A DNA stretch of 64,000 bases from positions 68,696,001 to 68,760,000 of the forward strand of contig OX597830.1 in the NCBI GenBank assembly GCA_951406725.2, read 5' to 3'. Both the position numbers and the translations under genes were made by a program. Of the stretch, positions 16,830-57,478 are shown piece after piece. This DNA is from Octopus vulgaris. Lineage: Eukaryota. Positions within the stretch are counted from its first letter, which is position 1; every line of letters starts with the position of its first letter. The notes under the pieces were generated by a model. That model was not told the origin of the DNA. It saw nothing but the letters and a program-made list of their open reading frames with translations, and ran no database searches.

Positions 16830-17520
16830 TCTCAAGGCATTTTCCGGCCAACCATAAATAGCATAGAATATTTGATAGAAGAACGCTTAACGTCATATAT
16901 TCTTATTGCAAGCACTTCGGCTCTCTAACAAGCCAGCAAAGCACGAAAATACTAAGCGAAACTAACGGCACCACTGAAGGAAACAACCGAAAATGTAACT
17001 TCAAAGACCAAAGCTGCTGTCCTTTAGGGGGAGATTGTCTACTTAAAGGCGTAGTAAACAGAGCCAAAGTCCAGATGGACAACACGGATGAATACAAGAT
17101 GTACACAGGCTAGGCAGAGAATTCCTTTAAAACGAGACCTTAGCAACTTATGAATTGATTTAAACATCTAGGAAACAGATCTACGACGAGCCTAGCTAAA
17201 CATATATAGCATTTAAAAGGAACAAAGTTTTCATCGTTTGAAATCCATTGGGCTGTCTTGGAAATGATGATGCCCATAACAACAGCAGCAACATTACCAA
17301 CGTGACAACGGAATTCCATACGTAATATCATGGAGAATCCTAGAACACCCAGGCCCCCTCCATAAACGGGACCAAGCGTTGTAAACTGTGCATAGCTGAA
17401 CCGGTGAGGATACTAAAGGTCTTCCTCGACCCGGGGAACATTCTTTACTCCAGAACAGCGGTCTTCGGAACATGTTAACACTTCAGGATATTCCTGCTGG
17501 CCTATTGCGATCCACATGAC
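16830..17520 (+). mobile_element. Penelope-like element GIY-YIG endonuclease fragment (degenerate)
   Basis: CNFKDQSCCPLGGDCLLKGVVNRAKV...YTG.AENSFKTR...TTSLAKHI.HLK...IHWAVLE...CKLCIAE fits the PLE GIY-YIG pattern. Confidence 0.75.
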
Positions 17521-22076: not shown

Positions 22077-22100
22077 AAGTAGCTTGCTTACCAACCCATG

Positions 22101-23909
22101 AGTCTTTGAGACTTCCCATAAGTCTTTGTTGTCAGTGTACGCATGCGTCATTTTGATGTGCACTGAAAAAGACAGTCGGCAGTGTTTAACCTGCCAAAAA
22201 GAAGCTGCTGCAAGGTAAGACTTTTGTCTCTTGAGTCCAGTGGGGGTTGTTGTCTGTGGTTATATTTTTTACAAACAAGTAGTCCTCAGTGGATTCAGGA
22301 TGTTGGTCTGCTTGCGGTTCAGCAATATTGGGAGCGTATCCTTCAACCAAAAGTTGTTCACTTTTTAATAGTGCATGTTTTTACAACAACATTTACCATT
22401 TATTGGAAAGCTGTATTTCAAGTGTCCACATTAAGTGAAAATTTTTTCTCGTTGTGAGAAGTATAGTTTGGTGGCGTATCCTGCCACCAAAAGTTGTTCG
22501 CTGTTTGTGAATAGTGTGCATTTTTACAACTACGTTTACCAATAATTGGAAAGCTGTATTTCAAGTGAATCAGTCCAGGTTCTAATTGGAATACCATAGG
22601 GTTTGGAGTACCTGAACGCCCAGGAGATTTTTTGCTGTGTTTTGTTGAACTATTGTTTTCTTCTTCTATTGTGACTTTCTTATTGAACTGTTTGCTTTTT
22701 ATCTTCTTCCCTTTTGCTTCCTTTTGATTTCTCACTTTTCTTTTTGAAATTTGTGAACTATTTTGGGGACTTTTTACTTTTTATTTTAAAACATGGCAAA
22801 AAATACGGATAAGATTGTAGAGTGGGAGATTGTCCCACCTAAGGAGTGGTTCAGACAGCAAGAGGGAAGGACGGTGGTGTTGAGAACGTATTCGAAGGTT
22901 CTCGACACCATTACCGTCATCTCCAAGCAGATGAATGAGCAGGAGTTGGTGGAACATATGCTATCCATTAAGTATATCTCAAATATGCAACGGTGTGGTT
23001 GCTGTTTGACACTCCAGAGAAAACTCGCAGTTTTGCGAGCCAGCCCTTTGAGGGTAAAGAAATTTTGTTTCTTCCCACTTATTGTGGGAAAAAATTGATG
23101 AAGGCTTGGGTTTGTGGTTTGCCACCCTGAATTGAACCTCAATGGATAGAGGATACTATCCGTCGGGGTCTGGGTAGCAGCGGAGCCAGGCTCCTCAATG
23201 TGAAAATTCTTCCTACGTATGATTGGGTTGGGTCAAAAGCTGTTTTGACCCTGTGGGCCCAATCAGCCATGAATCTGGTTATGCCAGATTTTTTGAAAAT
23301 GGCCGGGTGCAGGTACCTGGTGATTCTTGGGGTCGCCCCTTTCCCAGGTGTCATCGGTGCCTGGAGCCAAGCCATATAAAGAAAAGCTGTCCTCGGGAAT
23401 AAAGCAAAGTCCTGGAGATCTCTGTAGAAGGAACGAAGACAGCCGAGGAGACGGAGGACTCCTCAAAGAAGGGCCGCTAGAGGAAGAAGGTGAGCAACAA
23501 TGGGTGCTCAACAAAGGATCCTAGAGATGAGGGAGGCGAGGCGAATCTCTCGGTCACGGAGGAGACGCACCCTCCCTTAGTTGAGAGGAAAAAATAGGAA
23601 GAGGAAGAGAAATGGGACATTGCTGGCAGTCGGTGACATAGAACCAAAATGTCCCGGAACCTTGCCGGTAGGGGTTGTGCCTCCGGCAGGGTAAGAGACG
23701 CCGTTGGGAGCAATTGTGCCCCCAGCGGTAGAATTGACTACCTCGAACTCAGAGGAAGAGGAACTATTGGTCTTCTTCTACAGAGGAGGAGAGATTGAAG
23801 AGGTGTTGGAAAAGCACCATAAGGGAGTACCTTTAACCTTCACACAGGATCCCGAATGCCCTCCGTAGATAGCTGTGGAGCTCATAACGTTGCCCGTGAC
23901 GTATATGCT
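22101..23909 (+). mobile_element. ORF1-only retroelement, family B copy 1 (runs into the gap)
   Basis: Homologous ORF from ATG 22793 (MAKNTDKIVEWEIVPP...), with CX2CX4HX4C knuckle CHRCLEPSHIKKSC at about 23349-23390; frameshifted. Confidence 0.65.
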
Positions 23910-24009
23910 NNNNNNNNNNNNNNNNNNNNNNNNNNNNNNNNNNNNNNNNNNNNNNNNNNNNNNNNNNNNNNNNNNNNNNNNNNNNNNNNNNNNNNNNNNN
24001 NNNNNNNNN
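23910..24009. other. Assembly gap (100 N placeholder)
   Basis: Run of N. Confidence 1.
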
Positions 24010-26161
24010 GAAGCTGTAAGATGTGTTTTTGAAGCTGTCTTAAATGGAAGATTTTTGAAACTCAGCTGTAAGGTAAGATTTTTGGTGTCCAGTGGGGACC
24101 TGTTGTTTGCCGCAACTATTTTTTACAAACAAGAAATCGTCACTGGATTCTAGTCTATCTGGGCCTGAGTGAATTTTTTTTTTTTTCACTTAATTGTGAA
24201 AATTTTTGTTTTGGTGGGCGCTTAAAAATAGTATTTGTCCAGGAATAACTCCGTGGGAATTTTTAGAAAAATTTCAACAATATTGTTCCTGTCAAGGTGT
24301 ACCTATTAGAAGAAAATTGGAATGATTTTTTTAACTGTTTAACATTTGCGTTAAAATTTTGGCATGCAGTGCCGAGTGGCCTTTGCTGTATTTTGAACTG
24401 TTGCTCTCTCTTCATCTATCTTTTATTAAAAAAAAACTCTTTATTGAGCTGTTATTTTTTCTCCTTCCTTTTTGTTTGAACTTTTTCTCTTCCTTCATTT
24501 TCCTTAATTATTTTGTATTTTAAAACTGTATTTTTGGACTTTTTTAAAAAAACATGGCAAATAACAATGGAAAGTTGGTGGAGTGGGAAATTACGCCACC
24601 CAAAAGTTGGTTAAAAGAACTTGAAAGCAAGACGGTGGTTTTGAGGACCTACTCTAGGACCTTCGACGCCATTGCCGTTTTCATAAAGGATATAATCGAA
24701 AGAGAGCTGGCAGAATTTAAGCCAGCGATTAAGTTTATCTCTCGGGAGTCAAATACGCAACCATGTGGTTGCTGTTTGAATCCCCAGAAGTGGCTTGTGA
24801 ATTTGCGAGCCAGCCCTGGAGGGCAATGAAATTTTGTTTCTTCCAACTTATTGTGGGAAGAAGTTGACGAGAGCCTGGGTATGCGGCTTGCCACCCGGAG
24901 TTGAGCACGAAGGGATAGGAGATGCTATCCGCCGGGGTATGGGTGGCAGGTAGCACCAAGCTCCTCAACGTAAATATTCTGCCTCCGGCTTACTGGGGGA
25001 GTCAAAAATTGTTTTGACCCTATGGACCCAGTCAGCCGAAAGTCTGGTATTTCGAGACTTTTTGAGAATGGCCGGGTCTAGGTATCCGGTAATGCTTGAG
25101 GGACGCCCCCGCCCCAATTGTTATCTGTACCTGGAGCCTGGCCAAATAAATAAGAACTCTCCTCAAGGGCAAAGCAAAGTCCTGGAGCGGTTGACGGAGA
25201 CCTCTGTAGAGGAAGGAATGAAGGCGGCCGAAGAGACGAAGGACTCCTCAAAGAAGAGCCGCAAAAGGAAGAAGGTGAGCAATAATGGGTGCCCACCGAA
25301 GGATCCTAAGGATGAGGGAGGAGAGGCGAATCTCCCGGTCACGGAAGAGACGCACCCTCCCCCAGTCGAGAAGAAAAAAGAGGAAGAGGAGGAGAAACGG
25401 GACATTGCCGGCAGTCGGAAACAAGGCGCCGGAGTGTCCCCGAGCCTCATCGGTTGTTCACCGGCGGAGCGGAAATTGTGCCGCCAACGGTAGAATTGAC
25501 CCCCTCGGACCCGGAGGACGAAGAACAGTTGGTCTTCTTTTATAGAGGTGGAGAGGTGGAAAAGGTGGTGGCAGAACACTACGAGGGAGTACCTTTGGCC
25601 TTCACACGGGATCCCGAATGGCCTCCACAGATAGCTGTGGAAGTGATAACGTTGCGCGTGTTACATAGGCTGGAGGGAATAAAAGAGAAATATCGCTCGT
25701 GGCCGGGTGACGCCAACTCGGAGCCCGTCTTGATTTTAAAGCAAGCATGGGTGATGGTGGAGTACATGGACACAAGCGATGATGAGGTGGAAAATTGACA
25801 AGAGGTTGAAAAGCCTCAGTATTATAAAGTGCAAGAGGCTCAGCGCCTCATTTGTAAATGGACTAGTGTTGATTGTATATTGAATATTTTATTGTATGTT
25901 ATTGCATGTTATTATTTGTAATGGACTATTAAGTCCAATAATTGTAAAAACTGTCGTGAGAGGTTCAATACCGCATTTTGTTTTTGTTTTTTCTGTTGGA
26001 AAAAAAGAAGAATGATGTTTTAGAGAAGCAGAAAATCGGCGGACGTTTTTTTGTCTTCTCCCATCAATATCATCCTTGTTTCATCATTCACCTTATCAAT
26101 GTATGTGTCCAGCCCGCAAGCCTCTCTTTCTAATGCCTTTATGGCAAACCTTAATGAAATA
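24010..26161 (+). mobile_element. ORF1-only retroelement, family A copy 2
   Basis: Nearly identical to 19930-22076 and shares the same early frameshifts. Confidence 0.65.
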
Positions 26162-26185
26162 AAGTAGCTTGCTTACCAACCCATG

Positions 26186-28452
26186 AGTCTTTGAGACTTC
26201 CCATAAGTCTTTGTTGTCAGTGTACGCATGCGTCATTTTGATGTGCACTGAAAAAGACAGTCGGCAGTGTTTAACCTGCCAAAAAGAAGCTGCTGCAAGG
26301 TAAGACTTTTGTCTCTTGAGTCCAGTGGGGGTTGTTGTCTGTGGTTATATTTTTTACAAACAAGTAGTCCTCAGTGGATTCAGGATGTTGGTCTGCTTGC
26401 GGTTCAGCAATATTGGGAGCGTATCCTTCAACCAAAAGTTGTTCACTTTTTAATAGTGCATGTTTTTACAACAACATTTACCATTTATTGGAAAGCTGTA
26501 TTTCAAGTGTCCACATTAAGTGAAAATTTTTTTCTCGTTGTGAGAAGTATAGTTTGGTGGCGTATCCTGCCACCAAAAGTTGTTCGCTGTTTGTGAATAG
26601 TGTGCATTTTTACAACTACGTTTACCAATAATTGGAAAGCTGTATTTCAAGTGAATCAGTCCAGGTTCTAATTGGAATACCATAGGGTTTGGAGTACCTG
26701 AACGCCCAGGAGATTTTTTGCTGTGTTTTGTTGAACTATTGTTTTCTTCTTCTATTGTGACTTTCTTATTGAACTGTTTGCTTTTTATCTTCTTCCCTTT
26801 TGCTTCCTTTTGATTTCTCACTTTTCTTTTTGAAATTTGTGAACTATTGTCTTTTGTTTTGGACATTTTACTTTTTAATTTAAAACATAGCAAAAATACG
26901 GATAAGATTGTAGAGTGGGAGATTGTCCCACCTAAGGAGTGGTTCAGACAGCAAGAGGGAAGAACGGTGGTGTTGAGAACGTATTCGAAGGTTCTCGACA
27001 ACATTGCCGTCATCTCCAAGCAGATGAATGAGCAGGAGTTGGTGGAACATATGCTATCCATTAAGTATATCTCTAGGGGCGTCAAATATGCAACGGTGTG
27101 GTTGCTGTTTGACACTCCAGAGAAAACTCGCAGTTTTGCGAGCCAGCCCTTTGAGGGTAAAGAAATTTTGTTTCTTCCCACTTATTGTGGGAAAAAATTG
27201 ACGAAGGCTTGGGTTTGTGGTTTGCCACCCGGAATTGAACCTCAGTGGATAGAGGATACTATCCGTCGGGGTCTGGGTGGCAGCGGAGCCAGGCTTCTCA
27301 ATGTGAAAATTCTTCCTGTGGATGATTGGGTTGGGTCAAAAGCTGTTTTGACCCTGTGAGCCCAATCAGCCATGAAGCTGGTTATGCCAGATTTTTTTTA
27401 AATGGCCGGATGCAGGTACCCGGTGATTCTTGGGGTCGCCCCCTCCCCAGGTGTCATCGGTGCCTGGAGCCAGGCCATATAAAGAAAAACTGTCCTCAGG
27501 AATAAAGCAAAGTCCTGGAGATCTCTGTAGAAGGAACGAAGACAGCCGAGGAGACGGAGGACTCCTCAAAGAAGGGCCGCTAGAGGAAGAAGGTGAGCAA
27601 CAATGGGTGCTCAACGAAGGATCCTAGAGATGAGGGAGGCGAGGCGAATCTCCCGGTCACGGAGGAGACGCGCCCTCCCTCAGTTGAGAGGAAAAAAGAG
27701 GAAGAGAAATGGGACATTGCCGGCAGTCGGTGACATAGAACCGGAATGTCCTGGAACCTTGCCGGTAGGGGTTGTGCCTCCGGCAGGGTAAGAGACGCCG
27801 TTGGGAGGAATTGTGCCCCCAGCGGTAGAATTGACTACCTCGAACCCAGAGGAAGAGGAACTATTGGTCTTCTTCTGCAGAGGAGGAGAGGTTGAAGAGG
27901 TGTTGGAAAAGTACCATAAGGGAGTAGCTTTAACCTTCACACAGGATCCCGAATGCCCTCCGTAGATAGCTGTGGAGGTCATAACGTTGCCCGTGACGTA
28001 TATGCTGCAGGGACTGAATGAGGAATAACGCTTGTGGCCGGGCGGATCCCGCCTTGGTCTTGAATGAGGCGTGGGGGATGGCGGAGTATATGGGCACAAG
28101 CGATGTTGGTGAGGAATAGTGACATGTGGTTGAAAAGACTCAGTGTTATAATGTTTATTGTATAATGTTTAATGATTATTGCATGTTATTGTGTTTAAGA
28201 GGCTTAACGCCCCAATTCTTAAATGGACTATTAGTCCAAAAATTGTAAAACTGAAGTAAGAGGTTCATTACCTCGTTTTGTCTTTTTCTGTTAAAAAAAA
28301 CGAGAGAATTATGTTTTAGAGAAGCAAAAACAGGCGGGCGTTTTTTGTCTTCTCCTATTAATATCATCCTTTTCATCATTCACCTCGTCAATGTCTTTGT
28401 CCAGCCCGCAAGCTACTCTATATCATGCCTTTATGGCAAAATTTTTTAAATA
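26186..28452 (+). mobile_element. ORF1-only retroelement, family B copy 2
   Basis: ORF frame 26847-27359 continues past a TGA to an intact knuckle CHRCLEPGHIKKNC. The 3' UTR is homologous to family A and ends at AATA|AAGTAGCTTGCT. Confidence 0.65.
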
Positions 28453-35860: not shown

Positions 35861-35896
<36 letters not shown>

Positions 35897-36157
35897 CGAA
35901 TTGCCTCACCACACACCGAATTTAGAAATAGCAGTCAAAGAGTTATAGCTATTCTTTCTACTAAAAGGGAGATCTCAGTAAAAACACAGCACTTGAAAGG
36001 CAAACACAGACAGGTAAGAGAGAATGAAATAACGGCAATCTATCATACAATTTTAAGTCACCTACGGACGTACGTTTCGAAATTAAGTTTTAGGAAAGCA
36101 TAAGAATTAGATAATTATATCTTACCCAACTTCTTTTCTGTGAATGAAAGTTTGTGT

Positions 36158-36248
36158 CCTACGCTGATGAGAAAAGAAGTTGGGTAAGATATAATTATCT
36201 AATTCTTATGCTTTCCTAAAACGTAACTTCGAAACGTACGTCCGTAGG
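36158..36248 (+). ncRNA. Type I hammerhead ribozyme
   Basis: Stem I CCTACG/CGTAGG, core CTGATGA (36164-36170), GAAA (36231-36234), palindromic stem III ACGTACGT, GUC cleavage after 36242. Confidence 0.8.
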
Positions 36249-36740
36249 TGACTTAAAATTGGATGATAGATTGCCGTCATTTCATTCTCTCTTACCTGTC
36301 TGTGTTTGCCTTTCAAGTGCTGTGTTTTTACTGAGATCTCCCTTTTAGTAGAAAGAATAGCTATAACTCTTTGACTGCTATTTCTAAATTCGGTGTGTGG
36401 TGAGGCAATTTGTTGCTAAACCCTTAATTGCTTAGTATTACTTAAACTTTCCTCGAATGAGGCTTTTACATGCCGAAATCTACTTGGTTTAATTAATAAT
36501 TATTCCAAATTAATTAATTTCACCCTATATTGTTACTGATAACCATATTTCATCTCAGTAAATGACCACAGCATCTTGTCTTGGCTACACGCGGGTGGGA
36601 AGGGGCTGGTGACACAAACTTTCATTCACACTTTGAATTTGGTGGTACTGGTAACGGCTTTAGCTCGCTCTGATACTGAGTTGAGATGATGCCTTCTAGT
36701 ATCTCGAAATTTAATATACAATTATTCATAATTGTAGTGT

Positions 36741-36831
36741 CCTACGCTGATGAGAAAAGAAGTTGGGTAAGATATAATTATCTAATTCTTATGCTTTCCT
36801 AAAATTTAATTTCGAAACGTACGTCCGTAGG
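36741..36831 (+). ncRNA. Type I hammerhead ribozyme
   Basis: Same architecture; stem II GAAA/TTTC; GUC cleavage after 36825. Confidence 0.85.
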
Positions 36832-37119
36832 TGACTTAAAATTATATGATAGATTGCCGTCATTTCATTCTCTCTTACCTGTCTGTGTTTGCCTTTCAAG
36901 TGCTGTGTTTTTACTGAGATCTCCCTTTTTAGTAGAAAGAATAGCTATAACTCTTTGACTGCTATTTCTAAATTCGGTGTGTGGTGAGGCAATTCGTTGC
37001 TAAACCCTTAATTGCTTAGTATTACTTAAACTTTCCTCGAATGAGGCTTTTACATGCCGAAATCTACTTGGTGTAATTAATAATTATTCCAAATTAATTA
37101 ATTTCACCCTATATTTTTA

Positions 37120-37186
<67 letters not shown>

Positions 37187-42233: not shown

Positions 42234-42491
42234 TTGAATATCTGAAGTATTTTTTGAAAGTAGAAAACTGCCTTCTCAAGGAAGGTAAAACATTGATGAC
42301 ACTTGACGTGGATGACTCCAGCTGTTCGAAGAGGTGTTTTGAAATTTCTACATGTAAATCCTTCGTGAGCAGAGCGATAAGTCCAAGCTGTATTTTATAC
42401 GAAGATGACGCAACAGAGAAGGCACTAATACAAACAACTAATACATATTTTTATCAGTTGAGAAGATCTGTGCCGACCAAGTATACAGACG
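42234..42491 (+). CDS. PAN/Apple-domain protein exon (domain 1)
   Basis: Pyrimidine tract plus TTACAG acceptor; CSKRCFEISTCKSF...CILY..D PAN-like Cys pattern; donor G|GTAAAC; phase 1-1. Confidence 0.8.
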
Positions 42492-43109: not shown

Positions 43110-43960
43110 ATTTTTGCGGATAAAATAGATTTGTACAGACATAGGGAATTTCTGGAAACATGCAAATGCTCTTGTACACCATTATGTCAAACGCGGTCAC
43201 AGTGAATCACGATAAAAGCAAATAGCAAATGAGATAGCTAAGATTAGCAAAGAAAGTCTAACTTTCAGGAATAATTTTAGCAAACAACTTTAGTACAATA
43301 TGTGATATAATTCCTTTAGTAATTAACTGACACCGAAATTTCGCCGGCATTTCAAAAGTATTGCATGAAAGTTACCAGCATGTTGCGGAAACTTATCCTC
43401 GTTTCGAAAAAATATTTCCTCAGCCACCTATTGTAGTCTTTAGATGAGATAAGAATATAAGAGAACTATTAACCTCTTCTTCTGCACGCTGTTCCTTAAA
43501 AAACAGCCACAAGAGAGGTAAAGCTTGTTCATTGTGCAACATGTGTCAAGTGAATTCCATCAGGAATCACAGCAGAAATGCTATAATTTATACACAAGGT
43601 GGGACATGTAGAGATTCCCATTTGGTGTATGCGGCAGAATGCACGAAAGACAACTTGATTTATGTTGGTTGTACAACAGAACAATTAAACAAAATATTTA
43701 ATGGGCACAGATATGACGTCAGGCACAATGACAGTAGTTCGACAGAACTTGCCGAACATTTTGCTGCAAACGGATGCAATTTTGAAAAAGACTTGAAAGT
43801 GCGTATTCTCAGAAAATATTCTGAATTTGCTACACTTTCAGTACTCAAAAGGCATGAGAAGAAATATGTTTTGTTTGCGTGTTATTAACATCGCGCCCTG
43901 GAGGAATGACTAAAATGACAGGAGAATTCCATCATAGTTACACAAAATTGTTTGATTCTT
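43110..43960 (+). mobile_element. Penelope-like element fragment (linker plus GIY-YIG), intronic
   Basis: PQPPIVVFR.DKNIRELL, CSLC, TCRDSHLVYAAEC..DNLIYVGCTT..L..IFNGH and LAEHF. Confidence 0.8.
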
Positions 43961-44567: not shown

Positions 44568-47500
44568 TAGTTTTATTTTTATAGCGTGCTTTCACTTCAC
44601 TACCGAGCGCAGCTCTCTGTGCCTTGGGTATGTGCTGTGATTTGTTGTGATGCTCTGATTGTTATTGTATGGAAAGTGTTCTGCGTAGGATGTGTGCAGT
44701 GCCTAGTAGTGCAATTTTCTGCATCTTATATGTGTTTGTAAGTCCTGGTGTTTTTGTTATGTATTTGTCTGAATATTTTTTTATCATGCCTAATGCACCT
44801 ACTATGATAGGAATTGTTTCTGTTTTCAGATTCCACATTCTAGTTACCTCTATTTCCAGGTCTTTGTAATTTGAGAGTTTCTCCATTTCTTTTAGAGACA
44901 CGTTGTCATCTGCCGGTATTGATACATCAATTAGAAAGCATTTTTTTCTTCATGATCTCTGACAACTATATCTGGTCTGTTGGCCCTAATTTTTCTATCT
45001 GTGTATATCGGCATATCCCAGAGTATGGTTGCTTTCTCGTTTTCTGTGACCTTTTCTGGTATGTGCCCATACCATCTTTTTTCTGTTGTTATTCCATAAT
45101 GTTGGCATAGCTTCCAATGTATGTAGGTTCCAACTCAGTCATGTCTGTGAATATATTCCTTCTTAGCCAGGACTGGGCAGCTAGAGATAATATGATTTAT
45201 TGTTTCTTGTCCATCTCCACATATTCTGCAGTTACTTGTTATATTTCTTTTCATTACATGTTTTTGGTAATTTCTGGTGGGAGGCTTTGGTCTTGTGCTG
45301 CAATTAAAAGTCCCTCTGTTTCTGCTTTGAGTCCTGAGCTTCTCAACCATTGCTGGGATTTTTCTTTGTCTATTTCTTTTGCGTATAGTTTAGTCCAGTA
45401 TTTACCATGAAGGGGCTTTTCTTGCCATCGTTTTAGCATGGTTCGTTGCTGTTCTATTTTTAGTTTGGATTTCATTTGTTTTATAGCTTTTGTTGTTTCT
45501 TCCTCTTCTTCTTCTTCTTCTTCATGTTTATTAGGTGTTATGATTTCTTGTTTGTATTTGTCAGCTTCCTTAAATACTGAGAACAGTTTTTTGTTTTGTT
45601 TGTGTTTTGCCGCTATCTGAAGTAGATATTTTTGCAGTCCTATGGTGGTTATTTTATAGTAGTTTTCCAGCTGTATAAGGCCTCTACCACCTTCTATACG
45701 TTGTATATATAGTCTTTCTATGTCAGATTTTGGGTGATGCATCCTAGATCCTGTCATTATTTTTCTTGTTTTCCTATCTATTTTGGTCAGTTCATTTCGT
45801 GTCCAGTTAAGGATATTGTAGCTGTAACTTATAATTGGGACAGCCAAAGTGTTGATACCTTTTATCTTGTTTTTAGCATTGAGCTCTGTTTTTAGTATTG
45901 ATCTAACTCGTCTATAATATTCTTTTTTATTTTCTCTTTCATTTGTGTGTGTTGTGTCTTATCTAGTTCATGGATTCCTAAGTATTTGTAAGTTTGGATT
46001 TGGTCTAATTCTTTTATTTCATTGGTTTTATCTAGTGTGATGTTATTACTCTTAACTAGTTTTCCTCTTTTCATGGTTACTTTGGCGCATTTTTCTAATC
46101 CAAATTTCATATCCATTTCTTTGGTAAATCCATGAACTGTCTTTAATAGTGTTTCCAGCTGTTTGTCATTTGCAGCGTATAGTTTTAGGTCATCCATATA
46201 TAAAAGGTGGCTGATCGTTTTGCCGTAACATTTATATCCGCATCCAGTTCTATTTAGTATATTAGATAGAGGTGACAGTGCCAAGCAGAAAAGGAGTGGA
46301 GAGAGCGTGTCTCCCTGGAATATTCCTCTTCTAATGGGGATGGCTTTGGTTTTCATGAGTCCCTCTTTTGTTTGGAGGTGTAGGACTGTTTGCCATTTAT
46401 TCATAGAGTGCTCTATGAATTTTATGATTGTTGGTGCTACTTTGTTAATGGCTAGTGTTTCGAGGATCCATGTGTGGGGGTGCTATCAAACGCCTTTTTG
46501 TAGTCAATCCAGGCCATACTGAGGCCTTTCTTCTTTCTGTGGTTGTCTTCAGTTATGGCTTTATTAATCATTAGTTGATCTTTACAGCCATATGAGCCTT
46601 TGCGGCATCCTTTCTGCTCTTCTGGAAACAGTTTGTTTTCGTCCAGGTGCTTGTTCAGCCTTTGCAATATCACTGCAGTAAATGCCTTGAACATAGTAGG
46701 GAGGCAGGTTATTGGTCTGTAGTTTTCTGGTTTTGCTGTTTCATTTGATTTGGGAATTAAGATGGTTTTCCCCTTCGTGAGCCATTCAGGCATTGTCTCT
46801 GGCTCTGCTAGTATGTTGTTAAAGTTTTCAGCCAGCTTTTTGTGCATTCCTGTTAGATATTTCAACCAGAAGTTGGGGATCTTGTTATGTCCAGGTGCCT
46901 TCCAGTTGCTTAGTCTTTGCAGTGCCTGGGTGACCTCTTCAGTTGTTATGGGGGTCCAAAGTTCTTTAGATGCCGAGTTTGTTATTTTGATACTCCTTTT
47001 TTTGGTTGTTCGTTCGCCGACCATATTTCTCTCCAGAATTCTTCCAATTCTTCTGCCGTTGGTGCTGCAGTGACTTCTATTTTATTTTTGCCCAGTTCTT
47101 GTTAGAACTTTTTGGGGTTGGAGTTGAACTTTTTGTTTTGTTCAAAGAAGCGCTGGCGTTTCTCGTACCGGCGGATCCTTTGTGCTTTGGCAAGGATATC
47201 TTGCTTCAGCTTTTCTTTTATCTCAGGCAAATCTTTCTCTGTGATGTTATATTTGCGGAGTATTTTTGTTCTCTTTTTGTTGCTCAGTAGCGTTGATTGT
47301 TTGCTGATTTCATTAAGAATCGACAGGTCTTTTCTAATTTTTTTTATTTTGTTTTGGATGTTATTTATCCACAGGGTTTGTTTGGGTGGTGGTACTCCTG
47401 TTTGGGCGGGTTTGGGTGAGTATCCAGCTTCTTTTGTGGCTGCAGTGGCTGCTGCGTATATTAAGTCATTTAGCTGAGTGATATCACTTTTTTTTTTGTT

Positions 47501-48121
47501 TCAGTGGCTATTAGTTCTGTGACGGCTAGGTTTATGCTGTTTATAATTGGTGTTGTTATTTCGTTTATTTTGATTCTTGGGAGGTATGGTCGGTGGTCCA
47601 TTTTGAGCTCTGTGGTTTTCAGTTCTTTGATTATTTTATTTTTTATATTATCATAAACATTAGGCTCCCCTTCGTTGTTTACATCGTGTTTCTTGGGAAT
47701 GTTGTGTTTGTCTTCGTGTTTTACAGTTTCAGTGTTTATATTATTGGGCATTGTTGTGTGGCTTCTATCTACATTTTCCTGGTGTATTTTTTCTTTTAGA
47801 TGTTCTATTTCTATTTCTGATATTTTTTTTTTGTGTTGAGAATGTATCTTCGTACGTTAGCTAATTTATTAGGGTTCATTGCTGTATCCACATCTATATC
47901 TCTATTATTTTCCTTCCATATTTTATATGTATGTGTTGTTGTATTTTCATTTTTTGGGTAGAGCACTGCTGTGAAGTATGCGTGTAAGATAGAAATGTAT
48001 TCCTCACGTGTCCATTTACGTCTTTTGGGTTTTATTTGCGGGACATGAGGTACAACGTCCGGCCCATTATTTTGACGGTCGTCATTTTCGTAGGGTACCG
48101 GTCCGTTTATTTCTGTTGTCA

Positions 48122-48123
<2 letters not shown>
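44563..48123 (-). mobile_element. Near full-length Dong/R4-clade LINE in (TAA)n, frameshifted
   Basis: RT motifs NYRPITCL, GIFQGDTLSPLLF and HLLYMDDLKLY; CCHC CRICG...HIISSC; RLE tail with KYKDLE-like motif. Both ends abut (ATT)n/(ATC)n repeats. Confidence 0.92.
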
Positions 48124-48187
<64 letters not shown>

Positions 48188-48188
48188 C

Positions 48189-48262
<74 letters not shown>

Positions 48263-48320
48263 TATTATTATTATTATTATTATTACCATCGTCATCATTA
48301 TTATTATTATTATTATTATT

Positions 48321-48406
<86 letters not shown>

Positions 48407-48407
48407 T

Positions 48408-48476
<69 letters not shown>
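48123..48476. repeat. Compound (ATT)n/(ATC)n microsatellite
   Basis: Directly visible; source of the poly-I/H/Y/M pseudo-ORFs. Confidence 0.95.
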
Positions 48477-48477
<1 letters not shown>

Positions 48478-48519
48478 GAAAACTAACAGATTATTTTGCT
48501 GGGTATAATGGAAAGTCCC

Positions 48520-48845
48520 AGCAGACTAAGGTGACACTTGTTTACTTGTCATGCTTCAAGAACCCCGCGAAGAATTCTTGCAGTTCGAAGCAATGCTGAT
48601 TTTTTAATGTATTTTACCTGGACACTTGTACCGATCTTTTTCAGCCATCAGCCATGTTGGTAGTGCTCATACTTCCAAGTGCACCAATTACTATTGGTAT
48701 CATGTCTACTCTCTTCATTGACCACAACCTTCGTATTTTTCGCGTTAAATCGTCATAGTGTATTTTTTCTTCTTCTTTCACATTGATTCTGTTGTCACCG
48801 TGGCATACTATGTGAATTATCATTTATGTTCTTTCTTTTTTATTC
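48520..48845 (-). mobile_element. Dong/R4-like LINE 3' fragment
   Basis: DNRINVKEEEKIHYDDL...LWSMKRVDMIPIVIGALG; adjacent to (ATT)n. Confidence 0.7.
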
Positions 48846-48850
48846 ACCAC

Positions 48851-48922
<72 letters not shown>

Positions 48923-48992
48923 ATGTACTTTTTTATATTTTACATTAACTATGGAGATGAACTACAGGTGTTAGCAGTTCATTACATTGAAC

Positions 48993-49056
<64 letters not shown>

Positions 49057-49114
49057 GGATATTTGAGCGGTTATAGCAGTGCTGTTTCCTGCAAATTATT
49101 ACTACTATTATTAT

Positions 49115-50065
49115 TATTTTTTTTTTTTTCTTCTTTCAAATTTGCTTCCATTTCTTGCCGAGTGTCTTCCCGACTCCTAGGGCAAAGAAACTCATAGTAT
49201 AACATTGGTAGGCCATTAAACCAAACTCAATAGTTCGTTCATTTTTTTTTTAAGTTAAATTAAAATACATGAGCAGCAACAGTTCTCACATCGACAATGC
49301 TCTTCTCAATACGTGTGATGTACCAGTTAAGACAATCTTTTGCACTTCTTGCAGGGATGGTAAGCCAGGGATCATTCTCATATAATTTTCGGTTCCCTTC
49401 TTGATCATTCCTAGTGCTCCTACGATCACTGGTATTGTAACCGCCTTGAGATGCCACATTTTCTCAATTTCAATGAGTAGGTCTTTATATTTTCTGTGCT
49501 TGTCAAACTCTTTCGCTGAGATATTATGATCACAGGAGATGCTCATGTCGATCAATAAGCAAACTTTATTGTTTTGGTCTTTCACAACAATATCTGGTTT
49601 ATTGGCCTTGATGGTTCGGTCTGTATGTACTGGAAAGTCCCACAGAATGGTTACATTTTCTCCTTCAGTTACAGCCTCAGGGTGGTGATTATACCACTTG
49701 TCGGCAGTTTTGATATTGTAATGCCGACTTATTAGCCAGTGGAGATATTGGCCAACTCTGTCATGTCTTAATTTATACTCCACTGGTGCTAAGACTTTAC
49801 ATCCAGAGATTAGGTGGTCCATTGTTTCAATCATGTCGTTGCAGAATCGGCATTTTGGGTCTGCTCCATTTTTCATCACATTGGCCTGGTAGTTCCGGGT
49901 TAATAGGCTTTGATCTTGAGCAGCCAGGATGAAACCTTCGCTCTCTGCTTTTAGCCCTGAGCTCCGTATCCACTGATGGGTTTGCTTCTGGTCAACATCA
50001 GTTTGTTTGCTGCGGGTCACATATTTGCCGTGCAGAGGTTTCTCCTCCCACCTATCAGCCTTATT
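49115..50065 (-). mobile_element. 5'-truncated Dong/R4 LINE, copy 1
   Basis: Open frame 49286-50020 with CRFC...HLISGC, KPDIV and LIDMSI RLE motifs; bounded by (ATT)n. Confidence 0.9.
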
Positions 50066-50085
50066 ATTAATATTATTATTATTAA

Positions 50086-50155
<70 letters not shown>

Positions 50156-50169
50156 ATTATTATTATTAA

Positions 50170-50242
<73 letters not shown>

Positions 50243-50412
50243 GTTGTTGTTGTTGTTATCTTTGCACAGCTAACACTGGAGATGAACTACGGTGTTAGCA
50301 GTTCACTACCAGTGAACTAAGGTAACACCTCTTATTTTTCGAGCACCATCCGGAGTATTTGAGCGGTTCCTAGCAGTGCTGTTTCCTGCAAATTATTACT
50401 ACTATTATTATT

Positions 50413-51365
50413 ATTTTTTTTTTTTTCTTCTTTCAAATTTGCTTCCATTTCTTGCCGAGTGTCTTCCCGACTCCTAGGGCAAAGAAACTCATAGTATAAC
50501 ATTGGTAGGCCATTAAACCAAACTCAATAGTTCGTTCATTTTTTTTTTTAAGTTAAATTAAAATACATGAGCAGCAACAGTTCTCACATCGACAATGCTC
50601 TTCTCAATACGTGTGATGTACCAGTTAAGACAATCTTTTGCACTTCTTGCAGGGATGGTAAGCCAGGGATCATTCTCATATAATTTTCGGTTCCCTTCTT
50701 GATCATTCCTAGTGCTCCTACGATCACTGGTATTGTAACCGCCTTGAGATGCCACATTTTCTCAATTTCAATGAGTAGGTCTTTATATTTTCTGAGCTTG
50801 TCAAACTCTTTCGCTGAGATATTATGATCACAGGAGATGCTCATGTCGATCAATAAGCAAACTTTATTGTTTTGGTCTTTCACAACAATATCTGGTTTAT
50901 TGGCCTTGATGGTTCGGTCTGTATGTACTGGAAAGTCCCACAGAATGGTTACATTTTCTCCTTCAGTTACAGCCTCAGGGTGGTGATTATACCACTTGTC
51001 GGCAGTTTTGATATTGTAATGCCGACTTATTAGCCAGTGGAGATATTGGCCAACTCTGTCATGTCTTAATTTATACTCCACTGGTGCTAAGACTTTACAT
51101 CCAGAGATTAGGTGGTCCATTGTTTCAATCATGTCGTTGCAGAATCGGCATTTTGGGTCTGCTCCATTTTTCATCACATTGGCCTGGTAGTTCCGGGTTA
51201 ATAGGCTTTGATCTTGAGCAGCCAGGATGAAACCTTCGCTCTCTGCTTTTAGCCCTGAGCTCCGTATCCACTGATGGGTTTGCTTCTGGTCAACATCAGT
51301 TTGTTTGCTGAGGGTCACATATTTGCCGTGCAGAGGTTTCTCCTCCCACCTATCAGCCTTATTAT
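50413..51365 (-). mobile_element. 5'-truncated Dong/R4 LINE, copy 2 (tandem duplicate, period 1298)
   Basis: Almost identical to copy 1 with the same truncation point (ADRWEEKPLHG). Confidence 0.9.
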
Positions 51366-51368
51366 TAA

Positions 51369-51471
<103 letters not shown>

Positions 51472-51485
51472 ATTATTATTATTAA

Positions 51486-51528
<43 letters not shown>

Positions 51529-51557
51529 ATTATTATTATTAATATTATTATTATTCA

Positions 51558-51693
<136 letters not shown>

Positions 51694-51827
51694 TCTTTAC
51701 CCAGTATTTTTTATCTATTCATTATTTTTCATTGAACTAAAACAATAAAACTCTTCACCATAAAAGCAGCCCGCCACAATTAAGAAAACCGAACCAAAAC
51801 GTTCATTTACCTTTTCTATTCTTTCAG

Positions 51828-52058
51828 GAAGATGTCCTGTGGATTTCATTTACAACAGTTATCTTGCTAGTAACAATGATTTGGGTGTCACGTCTGATAT
51901 TAATTATAGGCAGTGTTTCTACAAATGTGAAGCAGAACCAACCTGTCAATCATTTGACTACAACTTTAATACGAATGTTTGCTACATGTCAACTTATAAC
52001 CATACTAACGGAGTTTTGCGTTGCATCAGAAATGACGTTTACATTGAAATAAACAGAA
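51828..52058 (+). CDS. PAN/Apple-domain protein exon (domain 2)
   Basis: Acceptor TTTTCTATTCTTTCAG; QCFYKCEAEPTCQSFDYN...VCYMS; donor A|GTAAGT; phase 1-1. Confidence 0.88.
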
Positions 52059-52602
52059 GTAAGTGTAAATTCGCTTTACATTTCCTTATACTTTTCTTCT
52101 ATCTAGACCTCTTCATCCAAGTGCTTCCTCCTGTTTTGTTTAGTCCGTGCTTATGGACTATATATATTTATATGTGTGTGTGTTTGTGTGTGTTTGTGTG
52201 CGTGTGTGTGTGCACGTGTATAAATGCAGGTGTGTGTGTCCGTGCATGTGTGTTGTGTGTGTGTGTGCGCGTGTGTGTGTGTGTGTGTATGTGTGTGTTT
52301 CAACGCGTGTTATTGTGTATGTGTTTGTCGCCCATTACCTCTTGACAATGGTGTTACTGAGTTTACGTTCACGTAACTTAGCGGTTTGGCAAAAGGAACC
52401 GAAAAAAGAATTAAAGACTTGGGTCAATTGGTTCGACTAAAATTATTCGAGGCGGTTAATGATGTCGAACAATTCGACCCTAGCCCTTAATGATGTTATC
52501 ATTAAAGGCATGGAACTGTGTATTAATGTCCCGGTTGCTAACTGAGGAAGAAATAGGGACCTTCTCTGTCTCTCCTATGCGTACGTTTTTTAGTATTTAA
52601 TG

Positions 52603-52648
<46 letters not shown>

Positions 52649-52933
52649 AATAATGAAGGGTGAAATTAATTAATTTGGAATAATTATCAATTACACCAAG
52701 TAGTCTTCGGCATGTAAAAGCCTCATTCGAGGAAAATTTAAGTAATACTAAACAATAAAGGGTATAGCAACGAATTGCCTTACCACATACCGAATTTAGA
52801 AATAGCAGTCAAAGGGTTATAGCTATTTCTTCTACTAAAAAGGGAGATCTCAGTAAAAACAGCATTTGGAAGGCAGACACAAACAGGTAAGAGAGAATGA
52901 ATTGACTGCAATCTATCATACATTTTTAGGTTA

Positions 52934-53040
52934 TCTACGGACGTACGTTTCGAAATCAAGTTTTTAGGAAAGCATAAGAATTAAATATTAAATATTAAAT
53001 AATTCTATCTTACCGAAACTTCTTTTCTCTTCAGCGTAGA
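52934..53040 (-). ncRNA. Type I hammerhead ribozyme (inverted copy)
   Basis: Reverse complement of 53624-53730. Confidence 0.8.
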
Positions 53041-53623
53041 ATACTATAATCATAAATGATTATATATTGAATTTTGAGATACCAGAAGGCACCAACTCAA
53101 CTCAGTATCAGAGCGAGCTAGAATCCGCAACTGGTATCACCGAATTCAATTTGTGAATGAAACGATTGTGTCAACAGCCCCTTCCCACCCGCGTGTAGCC
53201 AAAACAAGATGCTGTGGTCATCTACTGAGATAAAATATGGTTATCCGTAATAATGAAGGGTGAAATTAATTAATTTGGAATAATTATCAATTATTGCTAT
53301 ACCCTTTATTGCTTAGTATTACTTAAATTTTCCTCGAATGAGGCTTTTACATGCCGAAGACTACTTGGTGTAATTGATAATTATTCCAAATTAATTAATT
53401 TCACCCTTCATTATTACGGATAACCATATTTTATCTCAGTAGATGACCACAGCATCTTGTTTTGGCTACACGCGGGTGGGAAGGGGCTGTTGACACAATC
53501 GTTTCATTCACAAATTGAATTCGGTGATACCAGTTGCGGATTCTAGCTCGCTCTGATACTGAGTTGAGTTGGTGCCTTCTGGTATCTCAAAATTCAATAT
53601 ATAATCATTTATGATTATAGTAT

Positions 53624-53730
53624 TCTACGCTGAAGAGAAAAGAAGTTTCGGTAAGATAGAATTATTTAATATTTAATATTTAATTCTTATGCTTTCCTAA
53701 AAACTTGATTTCGAAACGTACGTCCGTAGA
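53624..53730 (+). ncRNA. Type I hammerhead ribozyme
   Basis: Stem I TCTACG/CGTAGA, core CTGAAGA, stem II GAAA/TTTC, GAAA-CGTACG-TC; cleavage after 53724. Confidence 0.85.
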
Positions 53731-54223
53731 TAACTTAAAAATGTATGATAGATTGCAGTCAATTCATTCTCTCTTACCTGTTTGTGTCTGCCTTCCAAAT
53801 GCTGTTTTTACTGAGATCTCCTTTTTTAGTAGAAGAAATAGCTATAACCCTTTGACTGCTATTTCTAAATTCGGTATGTGGTAAGGCAATTCGTTGCTAT
53901 ACCCTTTATTGCTTAGTATTACTTAAATTTTCCTCGAATGAGGCTTTTACATGCCGAAGACTACTTGGTGTAATTGATAATTATTCCAAATTAATTAATT
54001 TCACCCTTCATTATTACGGATAACCATATTTTATCTCAGTAGATGACCACAGCATCTTGTTTTGGCTACACGCGGGTGGGAAGGGGCTGTTGACACAATC
54101 GTTTCATTCACAAATTGAATTCGGTGATACCAGTTGCGGATTCTAGCTCGCTCTGATACTGAGTTGAGTTGGTGCCTTCTGGTATCTCAAAATTCAATAT
54201 ATAATCATTTATGATTATAGTAT

Positions 54224-54330
54224 TCTACGCTGAAGAGAAAAGAAGTTTCGGTAAGATAGAATTATTTAATATTTAATATTTAATTCTTATGCTTTCCTAA
54301 AAACTTGATTTCGAAACGTACGTCCGTAGA
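54224..54330 (+). ncRNA. Type I hammerhead ribozyme
   Basis: Identical to 53624-53730, 600 nt downstream. Confidence 0.85.
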
Positions 54331-54514
54331 TAACTTAAAAATGTATGATAGATTGCAGTCAATTCATTCTCTCTTACCTGTTTGTGTCTGCCTTCCAAAT
54401 GCTGTTTTTACTGAGATCTCCTTTTTAGTAGAAGAAATAGCTATAACCCTTTGACTGCTATTTCTAAATTCGGTATGTGGTAAGGCAATTCGTTGCTATA
54501 CCCTTTATTGCTTA

Positions 54515-54551
<37 letters not shown>

Positions 54552-54556
<5 letters not shown>

Positions 54557-54860
54557 TCTTACTGGTCTCAACAGAATCCACGTCGTGGTGTTTTGTCGGT
54601 AGTAAGCATAATAGCTGTAAGTTTAAAGTTGAGTGTAATAAAAAAAAGTTCATAATTGTTTCTTACTGGTCTCAACAGAATCCACGTAGTTGTTTTTAGC
54701 TGTGATATGTGTCCGAATGACCAGTGGCTGAAATGGCAGTAGCAGCAGTGACTGTTGGTCGTAGTAGTAGTAACCGTTACCGACAAAACACCACCACGTG
54801 GATTCTGTTGAGACCAGTAAGAAACAATTATGAACTTTTTTATTACACTTAACTTTTAAA
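54552..54860. repeat. (TA)n-adjacent direct plus inverted repeat element (pLTR-like)
   Basis: TTGTTTCTTACTGGTCTCAACAGAATCCACG occurs at 54552 and 54656, and inverted at about 54796-54828. Confidence 0.6.
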
Positions 54861-55033
54861 AATATTTTTGATAAGGTTCGTTTTTTCAAGAAGAACCGAA
54901 ACATGTAAAATTTCTTAGAAAATAAAACTTATCTTATATAGTGGCGTTTTCAAACTTCTTTTTTATAAATATATACCCACTCGCATACGATCTACACTTA
55001 TTATAAATATATATATATACACACACACATATA

Positions 55034-55067
<34 letters not shown>

Positions 55068-55149
55068 GGATTTTAGTATTAAAGAAATCATTAATGTTAT
55101 CATATCCACGAGAGAAATAGGAGACTATTTTATTTTTATTCCATTTCAG

Positions 55150-55245
55150 AACTTTGGAATGACCTTAACCAGCCCCTTACACTGGAGAAGATTAACTCCG
55201 TGGGATGTGATATAAGTGTTTTCGACTCTTATTATTTCGTTGACA
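55150..55245 (+). CDS. Candidate 96-nt linker exon of the PAN gene
   Basis: Acceptor TTTTATTCCATTTCAG; open frame (K)LWNDLNQPLTLEKINSVGCDISVFDSYYFVD; donor A|GTAAAA; phase 1-1, so it is skippable in frame. Confidence 0.4.
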
Positions 55246-55484
55246 GTAAAACCATTTTTTATTGTTTACTTATTGTGTTCTTTGTTTCTGTTCCTTGTTC
55301 CTCATCTTTAATTCATTGATCTTTCTCCGGTTCTTGCCGAAAGAACTGAAATTAATAAATATCCATTTCTTTCACATTGCATTATTATTTCTACTTAGAG
55401 TCTTGATTCTTAGTTAAATAAATTAGCAGTAAATTAATAATTAACATCCTTTCAAAAGGATGTCGTAAAACTAATCCACAAGTA

Positions 55485-56746
55485 CGCGGTGGTATCAAAA
55501 ACTTCCCGGACTTGATACGTTTTGAAAAATAACTTGTTTACCTAAGTTTTCGCATCAAATCCTTTGAAATAGTCACCTTGCGCAACAATACTCTAGCCTC
55601 AGCATTCCCACCACTTTTAGCTTGGAAGTAGTTTTCCTTAAGCGAGTTGGAAACCTTCTGCGTTTCGATCTGGATTTTGACAATGGTGTTCAGACGGTGG
55701 CCTTTAAGCTGCCTTTTTATCTTGGGGAAGAGATGGAAATTCGCAGGTACTAAATCTGGCGAATAGGACAGGTGCGGAAGCGTAACCATGTTGTTTTTGG
55801 CGAGAAACTCACGAGTAAGAATGCATTGTCGTCACAAATCCGGTCGCTTTTTGCCGAATGTCCTCTCTAAAACACTTCAAAATATCACAGTAGAACTCTC
55901 GACTGATGGTCTGACCCTGGCGGTCGAAATCTAAATGGTCAATACCTCAGATGTCGAAAAAAAGATGAGCATGCTTTTCATTGAGCTGCGGATCTGTCGG
56001 GTTGAGTTCGGTCGTGGAGATGAAAGACTTCTCCATTTTGACAATTGCTGCTTCACCTCAGAATCGTACTCGTAGACTCAACTTTCGTCACCAGCGATGA
56101 TCCTCAACATGAAGTATGGGTCATCAAGGCTGACGGAGAACATGACAAATTCGGAGCGATGTTTTTTCTGCTCAGTGATCAACAGTGGGGAGAACTTGGT
56201 AGAGACATGCCGCATGTTCAATTCAGACGTTAAGATTGTCTGCATAAATCCATACGACAGACCAACAACATCAGCAATGTCGTTGATTATCTACCTACGA
56301 TCCTCATTCAGAAGCTGATGGATTTTTTTCCACATCTCCGAGGAGTGACGCCCGTCGCAGATCTTCCAAATCGCTCATCGTCTTCCAGGGATGTTCTGCT
56401 TTTGAAAAGCCCGTGCCACTCTACATATTGCGTACAACCAATTGCCTCGTTAACTTTAGCTTGCAGAAGCATGTTCAATGTCTCTGTAACAGACGTCCCA
56501 AGGTTAATGCAAAATTTCACGTTGGCTTTTTGTTCTACCTTCTTGTCCATGACGAAATCGCAGACTACAGCGTACACGTGATGACAAAATCACAAATTTC
56601 ACAACTTGCAATAAGTAAATACAGCGGTGTCACTCAGCACACTGTCTCATAACTATCGTTGGTAGCTCTCACTGCGCACTTAACCGTGTGCTGCCATCTG
56701 TGAGCGCGTTATAGAACTAGTCCGGGGATTGTTTGATACCACTTTG
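55485..56746 (-). mobile_element. Mariner DNA transposon, degenerate, intronic
   Basis: TA-flanked TIRs CGCGGTGGTATCAAAAACTTCCCGGACT / AGTCCGGGGATTGTTTGATACCACTTTG. Motifs EQKANVKFC, SLEDDERFGR and HLSYSPDLVPANFHLFP. Confidence 0.88.
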
Positions 56747-57173
56747 TACATTTAAAATCTGGAAGATGAATTATTATTAATCGACGTTTTCATTAAAAAA
56801 CACAACACGCTTCGTTACTAACTTGCACAGAAATACCTCAATAAATCTCGCTGGTAATACGAGAACCACTCTACCTCCGAGATAACCAGCTACATACCCC
56901 TTCTCATTCTTCCGTCATACATGCTATTTCACCAGCCAGATCCCGCATCAATTATTATCCCAAATCCCTCCTTTCTAGATTATGCAACACCCAAGAACTC
57001 ACTCCATACTTACACTAACCTAAAGATGTCCAAACGGAATATTAGTAACATCAATCTATCGAATCAATAGACCATATCTATTCGTTTCCTTTGTACTTTG
57101 TCAGGCTAGAGCAATAATTTAATTTATGCTCTTATATTTATTGTGTTTCCTCTTTCCATTTTTTCTATTGCAG

Positions 57174-57370
57174 AAAAAGAAATTAATGGCCAGACAGCTT
57201 ATTCAACTTTTTCCTTCAAACCAAATCCATATCACAACCTTGTAACCGAGGCCCAAATGGATGCCCGATCGGTCTTGGATTGTTCACGTTTATGTATGGT
57301 ATCTTCTACATGTACCGCCTTTTCATATACTAACACTAAGTGCCAACTAAAGAAACTTGTTGACCTTTAA
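57174..57370 (+). CDS. PAN/Apple-domain protein terminal exon (domain 3)
   Basis: Acceptor TTTTTCTATTGCAG, phase 1; RSVLDCSRLCMVSSTCTAFSY..TKCQL; stop TAA at 57368-57370. Confidence 0.85.
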
Positions 57371-57478
57371 TGGAATTCACCCAAAAATGATTTACTTCTC
57401 AATGAAATGTGAGCAAGACTTCAACGGATCACGTTTGCTAATAATAATTATATCAGATAAAATGTGTGTTTCTTTATC

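Follow-up and report, generated by a model that had tools for sequence, protein, structure and literature searches.

The insertion at positions 52643 to ~54518 of the window (the whole 64,000-nt stretch of Octopus vulgaris DNA that was analyzed) is quite probably a young, non-coding hammerhead retrozyme with a 600-bp unit, located in an intronic (TA)n tract, where a Penelope-type enzyme likely wrote it from both strands of the DNA. In the predicted folds of the host transcript, the antisense arm of the element pairs with the first of two sense ribozymes, so that cleavage of the intron is probably slow or absent and the intron is spliced out, and the host gene is likely little affected. The single locus is of little import, being one of thousands of copies and lying in one member of a multi-copy PAN-domain gene family. 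Together with its empty, 95-96% identical paralog, it makes a natural test pair for two questions, namely, whether splicing suffers from a retrozyme in the intron and whether inversion of one arm shields the host.

Structure of the inserted element

The element is bracketed by two (TA)18 runs and consists of two arms in opposite orientations:

52608..52644, no strand: left flank (TA)18, insertion target (single short (TA) run at the empty site of the paralog)
52643..53293, minus strand: inverted retrozyme arm, 651 nt
52934..53040, minus strand: type I hammerhead, cut after 52940, antisense in the host transcript
53293..53294, no strand: inversion junction, blunt, 0-nt overlap
53294..54518, plus strand: sense arm, 1225 nt, 2.04 units of 600 nt
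53624..53730, plus strand: predicted type I hammerhead 1, cut after 53724 (motif, fold)
53725..54324, plus strand: 600-nt monomer between the two cut sites
54224..54330, plus strand: predicted type I hammerhead 2, cut after 54324 (motif, fold)
54516..54552, no strand: right flank (TA)18

With the ribozyme cut taken as position 0 of the unit, the plus arm comprises positions 170-600, 1-600 and 1-195, starting at 170 and ending at +195, and the minus arm comprises positions 247-600 and 1-298, with the 5' end at position 247 and the 3' end, located at 52643, at +298. Apart from 3 mismatches, the 651-nt segments 52643-53293 and 53371-54021 are perfect reverse complements, separated by a 77-nt loop, and a single deleted base is the sole difference between the sense units 53294-53893 and 53894-54492; thus, the long fold-back and the near-identity of the units described in the initial annotation are both borne out. 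The left arm is also able to pair with the second unit (52838-53293 with 53971-54426). The recent origin proposed in the same annotation gains support as well: with about four internal differences in the element and an empty site in the paralog (see below), the insertion appears to be young. The G+C content of the unit is 34%, and the 600-nt monomer 53725..54324 is more stable than shuffled sequences (z -7.4, 30 shuffles). Six-frame translation of the element reveals no long ORF and, in particular, no RT plus GIY-YIG ORF of the kind found in autonomous Penelope-like elements (PLEs). Judging by these sequence features, i.e., a dispersed, non-coding, low-GC element without LTR organization, in which each of the tandem units contains a hammerhead motif, the insertion is a non-LTR retrozyme.

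A motif search locates the two sense hammerheads exactly where the initial annotation had placed them, with the cores beginning at 53630 and 54230, respectively, and predicted cleavage at GUC after 53724 and 54324, 600 nt apart. These are the two complete sense ribozymes of the element, with the same 600-nt period. In each of them, stem I measures 6 bp, the stem II region spans 76 nt, and helix III amounts to 1 bp closing a palindromic hexamer. In hammerhead 1, these parts are stem I (53624-29/53725-30), the core (53630-36), the long stem II (53637-53712), GAAA (53713-16) and the palindromic hexamer (53717-22); the long stem II of hammerhead 2 is non-canonical. The minus-strand hammerhead (cut after 52940), absent from the initial annotation, is complementary to hammerhead 1 or 2. 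An Rfam search at the gathering score yields no matches within the 64-kb window, so that the ribozyme call is based on the motif, the fold and conservation in the family. The ribozyme core is intact in 118 of the 121 family pieces and GAAA in 128 of 130; the palindrome is kept in 121 of 129 pieces, with 5 more G-U-compatible, and the remainder of the unit is variable. A short palindromic helix III hinders cleavage as a monomer, and two adjacent copies can make an active dimer (PMC4209133); with a 1-bp helix III, the ribozymes of this element are predicted to need a dimer.

Host gene and its empty paralog

The following host exons flank the element:

42234-42491, plus strand: first exon, inferred from splice signals only
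51828..52058, plus strand: PAN-domain exon upstream of the insertion (PF00024; phase 1-1)
55150..55245, plus strand: 96-nt exon downstream of the insertion (phase 1-1)
57174..57372, plus strand: last coding exon, PAN domain, up to the stop codon (PAN-domain match, exon joint)

Exon 51828-52058 matches PF00024 above the cut-off, with an E-value of 2.5e-6. Among four sequencing runs, available as assembled contigs and regarded as RNA-like by a guess as to their nature, 52058 is joined to 55150 at GT..AG in three and 55245 to 57174 in two. The first of these joints puts the element inside intron 52059-55149, in agreement with the initial annotation, which assigned the array to the intron after this PAN exon; moreover, a single 788-nt contig contains all three exons, and their phases are in agreement. 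The three runs with the first joint represent two studies under one organism label and one under another, and their spliced contigs come from other animals, possibly without the insertion. In run X14, the exon joints are not seen, and there is no cover on the PAN exon. The distance from the cut site of hammerhead 2 to the next exon is about 825 nt.

The locus G000:C17:44854356-44872015 is a segmental duplicate of positions 38265-60000 of the window, with 94-96% identity. On both sides of the element the identity is 95-96%, and a short (TA) run replaces the 1.9-kb insertion. This empty (TA)n site implies that the insertion occurred later than the duplication, and the insertion position is accordingly not conserved between the two copies. 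Besides the retrozyme, the paralog lacks part of the retroelement at 44.6-48.4 kb; in addition, 3 nt are deleted from the last PAN exon of the paralog, close to the stop codon. The spliced contigs show 1, 0 and 0 differences from the PAN exon of the locus, as opposed to 13 alignment columns for the paralog, 5 of them in the portion represented in X2, which indicates that they come from the locus or its ortholog; the empty paralog as their source is rejected by these exon differences. In one run, intron contigs share variants with the paralog and not with the window, which means that the alleles differ.

The host appears to be a small gene whose phase-1 exons encode three PAN domains; it belongs to a clustered family of ~25 copies on one contig (25 exon matches), with clusters at 44.8, 47.9-48.4, 57.0-57.2 and 68.7 Mb of G000:C17. 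Several other repeats are present in the window. The upstream intron contains, on the minus strand, a broken non-LTR reverse-transcriptase element (44660-51696), the 3' part of which is tandemly duplicated over 1298 bp, the copies being separated by (TTA)n runs. A MITE-like element with 51-56-nt terminal inverted repeats (54551-54841) adjoins the right TA run and is also found in the paralog. Further upstream, at 20400-28200, there is a tandem duplication with a period of ~4085 bp that involves a G+C-richer element with broken ORFs.

The retrozyme family and its probable route of insertion

A search of the 2.8-Gb genome with the unit identifies 2,026 candidate sites, and 40 of these 2,026, when scored, give 170 matches, mostly with 95-98% identity. 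The family sample analyzed here consists of 41 loci (39 from the matches listed and two in the window) and is biased to query-like copies. In this sample, 20 of the 41 loci have an inverted arm, all with the 3' ends outward, and 59 of 61 3' ends adjoin TA runs. The end points are largely fixed: the end lies at +190-197 in 18 of 21 direct loci, and in 17 of 20 inverted loci one arm ends at +190-204 and the other at +290-305, so that the ends of the present locus, +298 and +195, are typical of inverted loci. The junction overlaps in the inverted loci range from -34 to +22 nt, 14 of the 20 being between -1 and +4. Inversion is routine in this family and nothing special to this locus. Fragments of the family are also present in contigs of the RNA-like runs, a type of data that is blind to RNA ends, strand and circularity. 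A literature search on octopus hammerheads, twin priming by PLEs and intronic retrozymes, judged by titles and abstracts and with most subscription papers outside its coverage, found no paper on this family or question; the 600-bp family is apparently undescribed, within a known class. The second family copy in the window, at 35895-37125, upstream of the inferred exons of the host, is older (85-91% identical) and has a short inverted arm, TA-run flanks and two complete plus-strand hammerheads, with cuts after 36242 and 36825, 583 nt apart.

The inverted 5'-truncated arm, the one-sided extension and the TA target together reproduce the insertion footprint of PLEs, the described features of which include partial tandem copies, a 5'-truncated copy in inverted orientation, a tail on one side and a preference for (TA)n (PMC8557442). 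In vitro, reverse transcription starts internally, and both strands are nicked (PMC11167929). Animal retrozymes have been derived from PLE terminal repeats (10.64898/2026.07.22.740005). The same genome harbors a coding family of recent origin, with numerous frames of 726-727 aa that are still intact and contain YRDD and GIY-YIG-like motifs (e.g., the locus G000:C10:12134500-12141500). Its terminal repeat includes a compact hammerhead, and the family has two fixed 3' ends 69 nt apart: +42 is paired with +105-111 in all 10 loci with both ends visible, and all 28 ends adjoin TA runs, in a sample of 18 hand-picked loci, some of them chosen for opposite-strand pairs, which implies no rate. The 727-aa ORF gives no Pfam match and no significant PDB match; the designation of this family as Penelope-like is suggested by the YRDD/GIY-YIG-like motifs, the layout with a pLTR and a hammerhead, and features of the clade. 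In a blastn comparison, the unit shows 0 matches to 38 loci from two GIY-YIG-type searches, and given this lack of nucleotide similarity to the coding family, the helper can be assigned in kind and not by name. The window itself contains two GIY-YIG-type fragments from different Penelope-like families (16862-17412 and 43448-43888), with 2,750 and 6,488 candidate sites in the genome, respectively; these fragments served as queries in the search for the helper.

The following scenario seems best compatible with these observations. Both ends of the element adjoin (TA)n, and the arms point outward, ending at +298 and +195, like most inverted loci of the family. A Penelope-like endonuclease/reverse transcriptase would nick (TA)n and start cDNA synthesis from two sites inside a retrozyme RNA, either multimeric or circular, after which the resulting pair of cDNAs would be joined 5' to 5'. 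The family footprint, with its two fixed priming points and a counterpart of the same kind in a coding Penelope-like family, lends genomic weight to the Penelope route proposed for animal retrozymes.

Fate of the host transcript and relation to known systems

The minimum-energy fold of 53294-54517, i.e., with the inverted arm absent, is a double hammerhead (cost 0.0 kcal/mol) in which the stems I are swapped and helix III is shared. With the upstream arm present, the double hammerhead costs +274.9 kcal/mol, hammerhead 1 alone +136.2 kcal/mol, and hammerhead 2 alone +1.1 kcal/mol; these values are equilibrium predictions that leave out hnRNP binding, helicases, kinetics and editing. The antisense arm is transcribed before hammerhead 1, and when growing transcripts with ends from 53640 to 54517 are folded, all landmarks of hammerhead 1 are paired to the arm at each of the five lengths that contain it. 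Thus, the view in the initial annotation that the fold-back precludes folding of the first ribozyme is supported, and the hairpin and the dimer ribozyme emerge as unequal alternatives, with the models tilted to the hairpin. The arm has one antisense ribozyme copy and can take either unit, so that one ribozyme is always predicted to be single; in the predicted folds, hammerhead 1 is masked by the left arm, and hammerhead 2 is free but single. Release of the 600-nt monomer requires both cuts and, with the dimer so costly in the presence of the arm, appears unlikely from the host transcript, so that cleavage with monomer release, offered in the initial annotation as a live alternative to the duplex, finds no support in the folds. 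Long dsRNA is likely to form in this transcript. According to the preferred reading, host Pol II would read the antisense arm first, the 651-bp hairpin would zip up and capture hammerhead 1, hammerhead 2, with its 1-bp helix III and no dimer partner, would be a weak cutter, and the hairpin, an ordinary repeat-type ADAR substrate, would leave with the excised intron. A universal role of the inversion as a silencer of the array is rejected: 9 of 20 inverted loci keep at least 2 surplus ribozymes in one direction.

Introns and UTRs of coleoids undergo widespread repeat-directed A-to-I editing (PMC9068888), and ADAR action on the 651-bp duplex is plausible. The initial annotation suggested a search for A-to-G mismatch clusters over the arms, and the only cluster found belongs to another copy of the family. 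It consists of five A>G changes in the sense orientation, located in a stretch of ~50 nt surrounding the cut site in one X1 contig; three of the five are missing from 136-139 genomic pieces, with genomic variants still a possible source. This contig has family-majority bases where the locus differs, which identifies it as a different family copy and led to the rejection of the cluster as editing of the present locus. Among the 40 of 119 rows listed for the RNA-like runs, there are no contigs that combine the diagnostic bases of the locus with A>G changes. Across the family, rare variants common to all units of a locus are enriched in A>G compared to single-piece variants (17/39 vs 6/119, Fisher p 7e-8), and the all-unit variants include 17 A>G vs 9 T>C (p 0.019). 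This excess fits edited templates copied into the genome and might be a trace of RNA edits fixed by retrotransposition.

Three other interpretations of the locus have to be considered. Hammerhead 2 might cut efficiently on its own, ~825 nt before the next exon, and reduce either splicing of the host gene or its output from the allele with the insertion, in a mildly harmful or regulatory manner. Its fold costs +1.1 kcal/mol even with the arm, most invertebrate retrozyme hammerheads self-cleave efficiently (PMC7229834), fast intronic ribozymes lower splicing (slow ones do not; PMC10919898, citing Fong et al. 2009), and Xenopus introns are depleted of retrozymes after normalizing (10.64898/2026.07.22.740005). 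Nevertheless, we consider this unlikely: the 1-bp helix III with the conserved palindrome is of the dimer-requiring type (PMC4209133), 8 of 9 Xenopus dimers showed no cleavage in vitro (10.64898/2026.07.22.740005), the ~825 nt from the cut to the acceptor is a short distance, and the exons are joined in three of the four runs, albeit in animals possibly without the insertion. Still less probable is genuine competition between the folds, in which a real share of host transcripts would form the double hammerhead and release the monomer, so that the intron would act as a source locus, perhaps under the control of A-to-I editing, which would loosen the hairpin. The two intact sense ribozymes 600 nt apart, the dimer as the best fold when the arm is absent, the A>G cluster in a family contig together with the A>G-rich all-unit variants, and the prospect that a transcript starting inside the element past the arm would escape masking all point in this direction, against the +275 kcal/mol cost of the dimer with the arm, transcription of the arm first, and the absence of an A>G contig with the locus diagnostic bases among the rows listed. 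A more elaborate version, in which ADAR hyper-editing of the 651-bp hairpin would free hammerhead 1, the double hammerhead would cut the intron and release a retrozyme circle, and the editing level (depending on tissue or temperature) would set both host output and retrozyme production, is a highly improbable extension.

That the inversion is an assembly or read chimera seems the least probable of all. The junction 53293/53294 is absent among the joints and pieces listed for the three DNA-like runs, in which repeat contigs are ~60 nt; for runs X15-X17 (DNA-like) and X5 (RNA-like) over 52400-54760, the 15 of 19 joints and 32 of 3,817 pieces listed, with the TA flanks skipped, include neither this junction nor an empty-site joint and are uninformative on chimerism and polymorphism. 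By contrast, a fold-back read would mirror the flank, and the left arm is bordered by unique sequence that is present in the paralog as well, which argues against such an artifact. Furthermore, the arm end obeys the family rule (+298 vs +195), there are 3 differences between the arms, and the same architecture recurs at 19 other loci.

The preferred reading, a Penelope-written retrozyme with a masked first ribozyme, can be compared with several known systems. Similarly to metazoan non-LTR retrozymes (PMC7229834; 10.64898/2026.07.22.740005), the element consists of non-coding low-GC tandem units with one type I hammerhead per unit and occurs as dispersed dimers to multimers, with many intronic copies (44% in X. 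tropicalis; 10.64898/2026.07.22.740005). The 600-nt unit compares with 170-400 nt in coral, mussel and axolotl retrozymes and with 51-972 in the preprint 10.64898/2026.07.22.740005; the 76-nt stem II is unlike that of metazoan retrozymes, and the frequent inverted arm with two fixed 3' ends is not seen in the available portions of the accounts of these elements (PMC7229834; 10.64898/2026.07.22.740005). The insertions resemble those of EN+ PLEs (PMC8557442, PMC11167929, PMC4209133) in the partial tandems, the inverted 5'-truncated copy, the extension at one end, the (TA)n or AT-rich targets, the dimer-type hammerheads, and reverse transcription that starts inside the RNA, downstream of the hammerhead. 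Unlike EN+ PLEs, the retrozyme has no ORF and shows no sequence match to the one coding family tested, and its one-sided extension is ~100 nt, compared to 30-40 bp in published PLEs (PMC8557442) and 69 nt in the coding family of this genome. As a sense ribozyme in an intron of a spliced gene, it recalls the CPEB3 ribozyme (PMC10919898), which, however, is single, conserved and HDV-like and exerts a demonstrated effect, whereas the present one is a recent repeat insertion absent from a 95-96% identical paralog. Finally, the long intramolecular repeat duplex in pre-mRNA is a feature shared with intronic ADAR substrates, such as coleoid repeats (PMC9068888) and inverted Alu pairs (PMC526178), from which this locus differs in that the duplex is a near-perfect 651 bp, originates from one insertion event, and covers a ribozyme.
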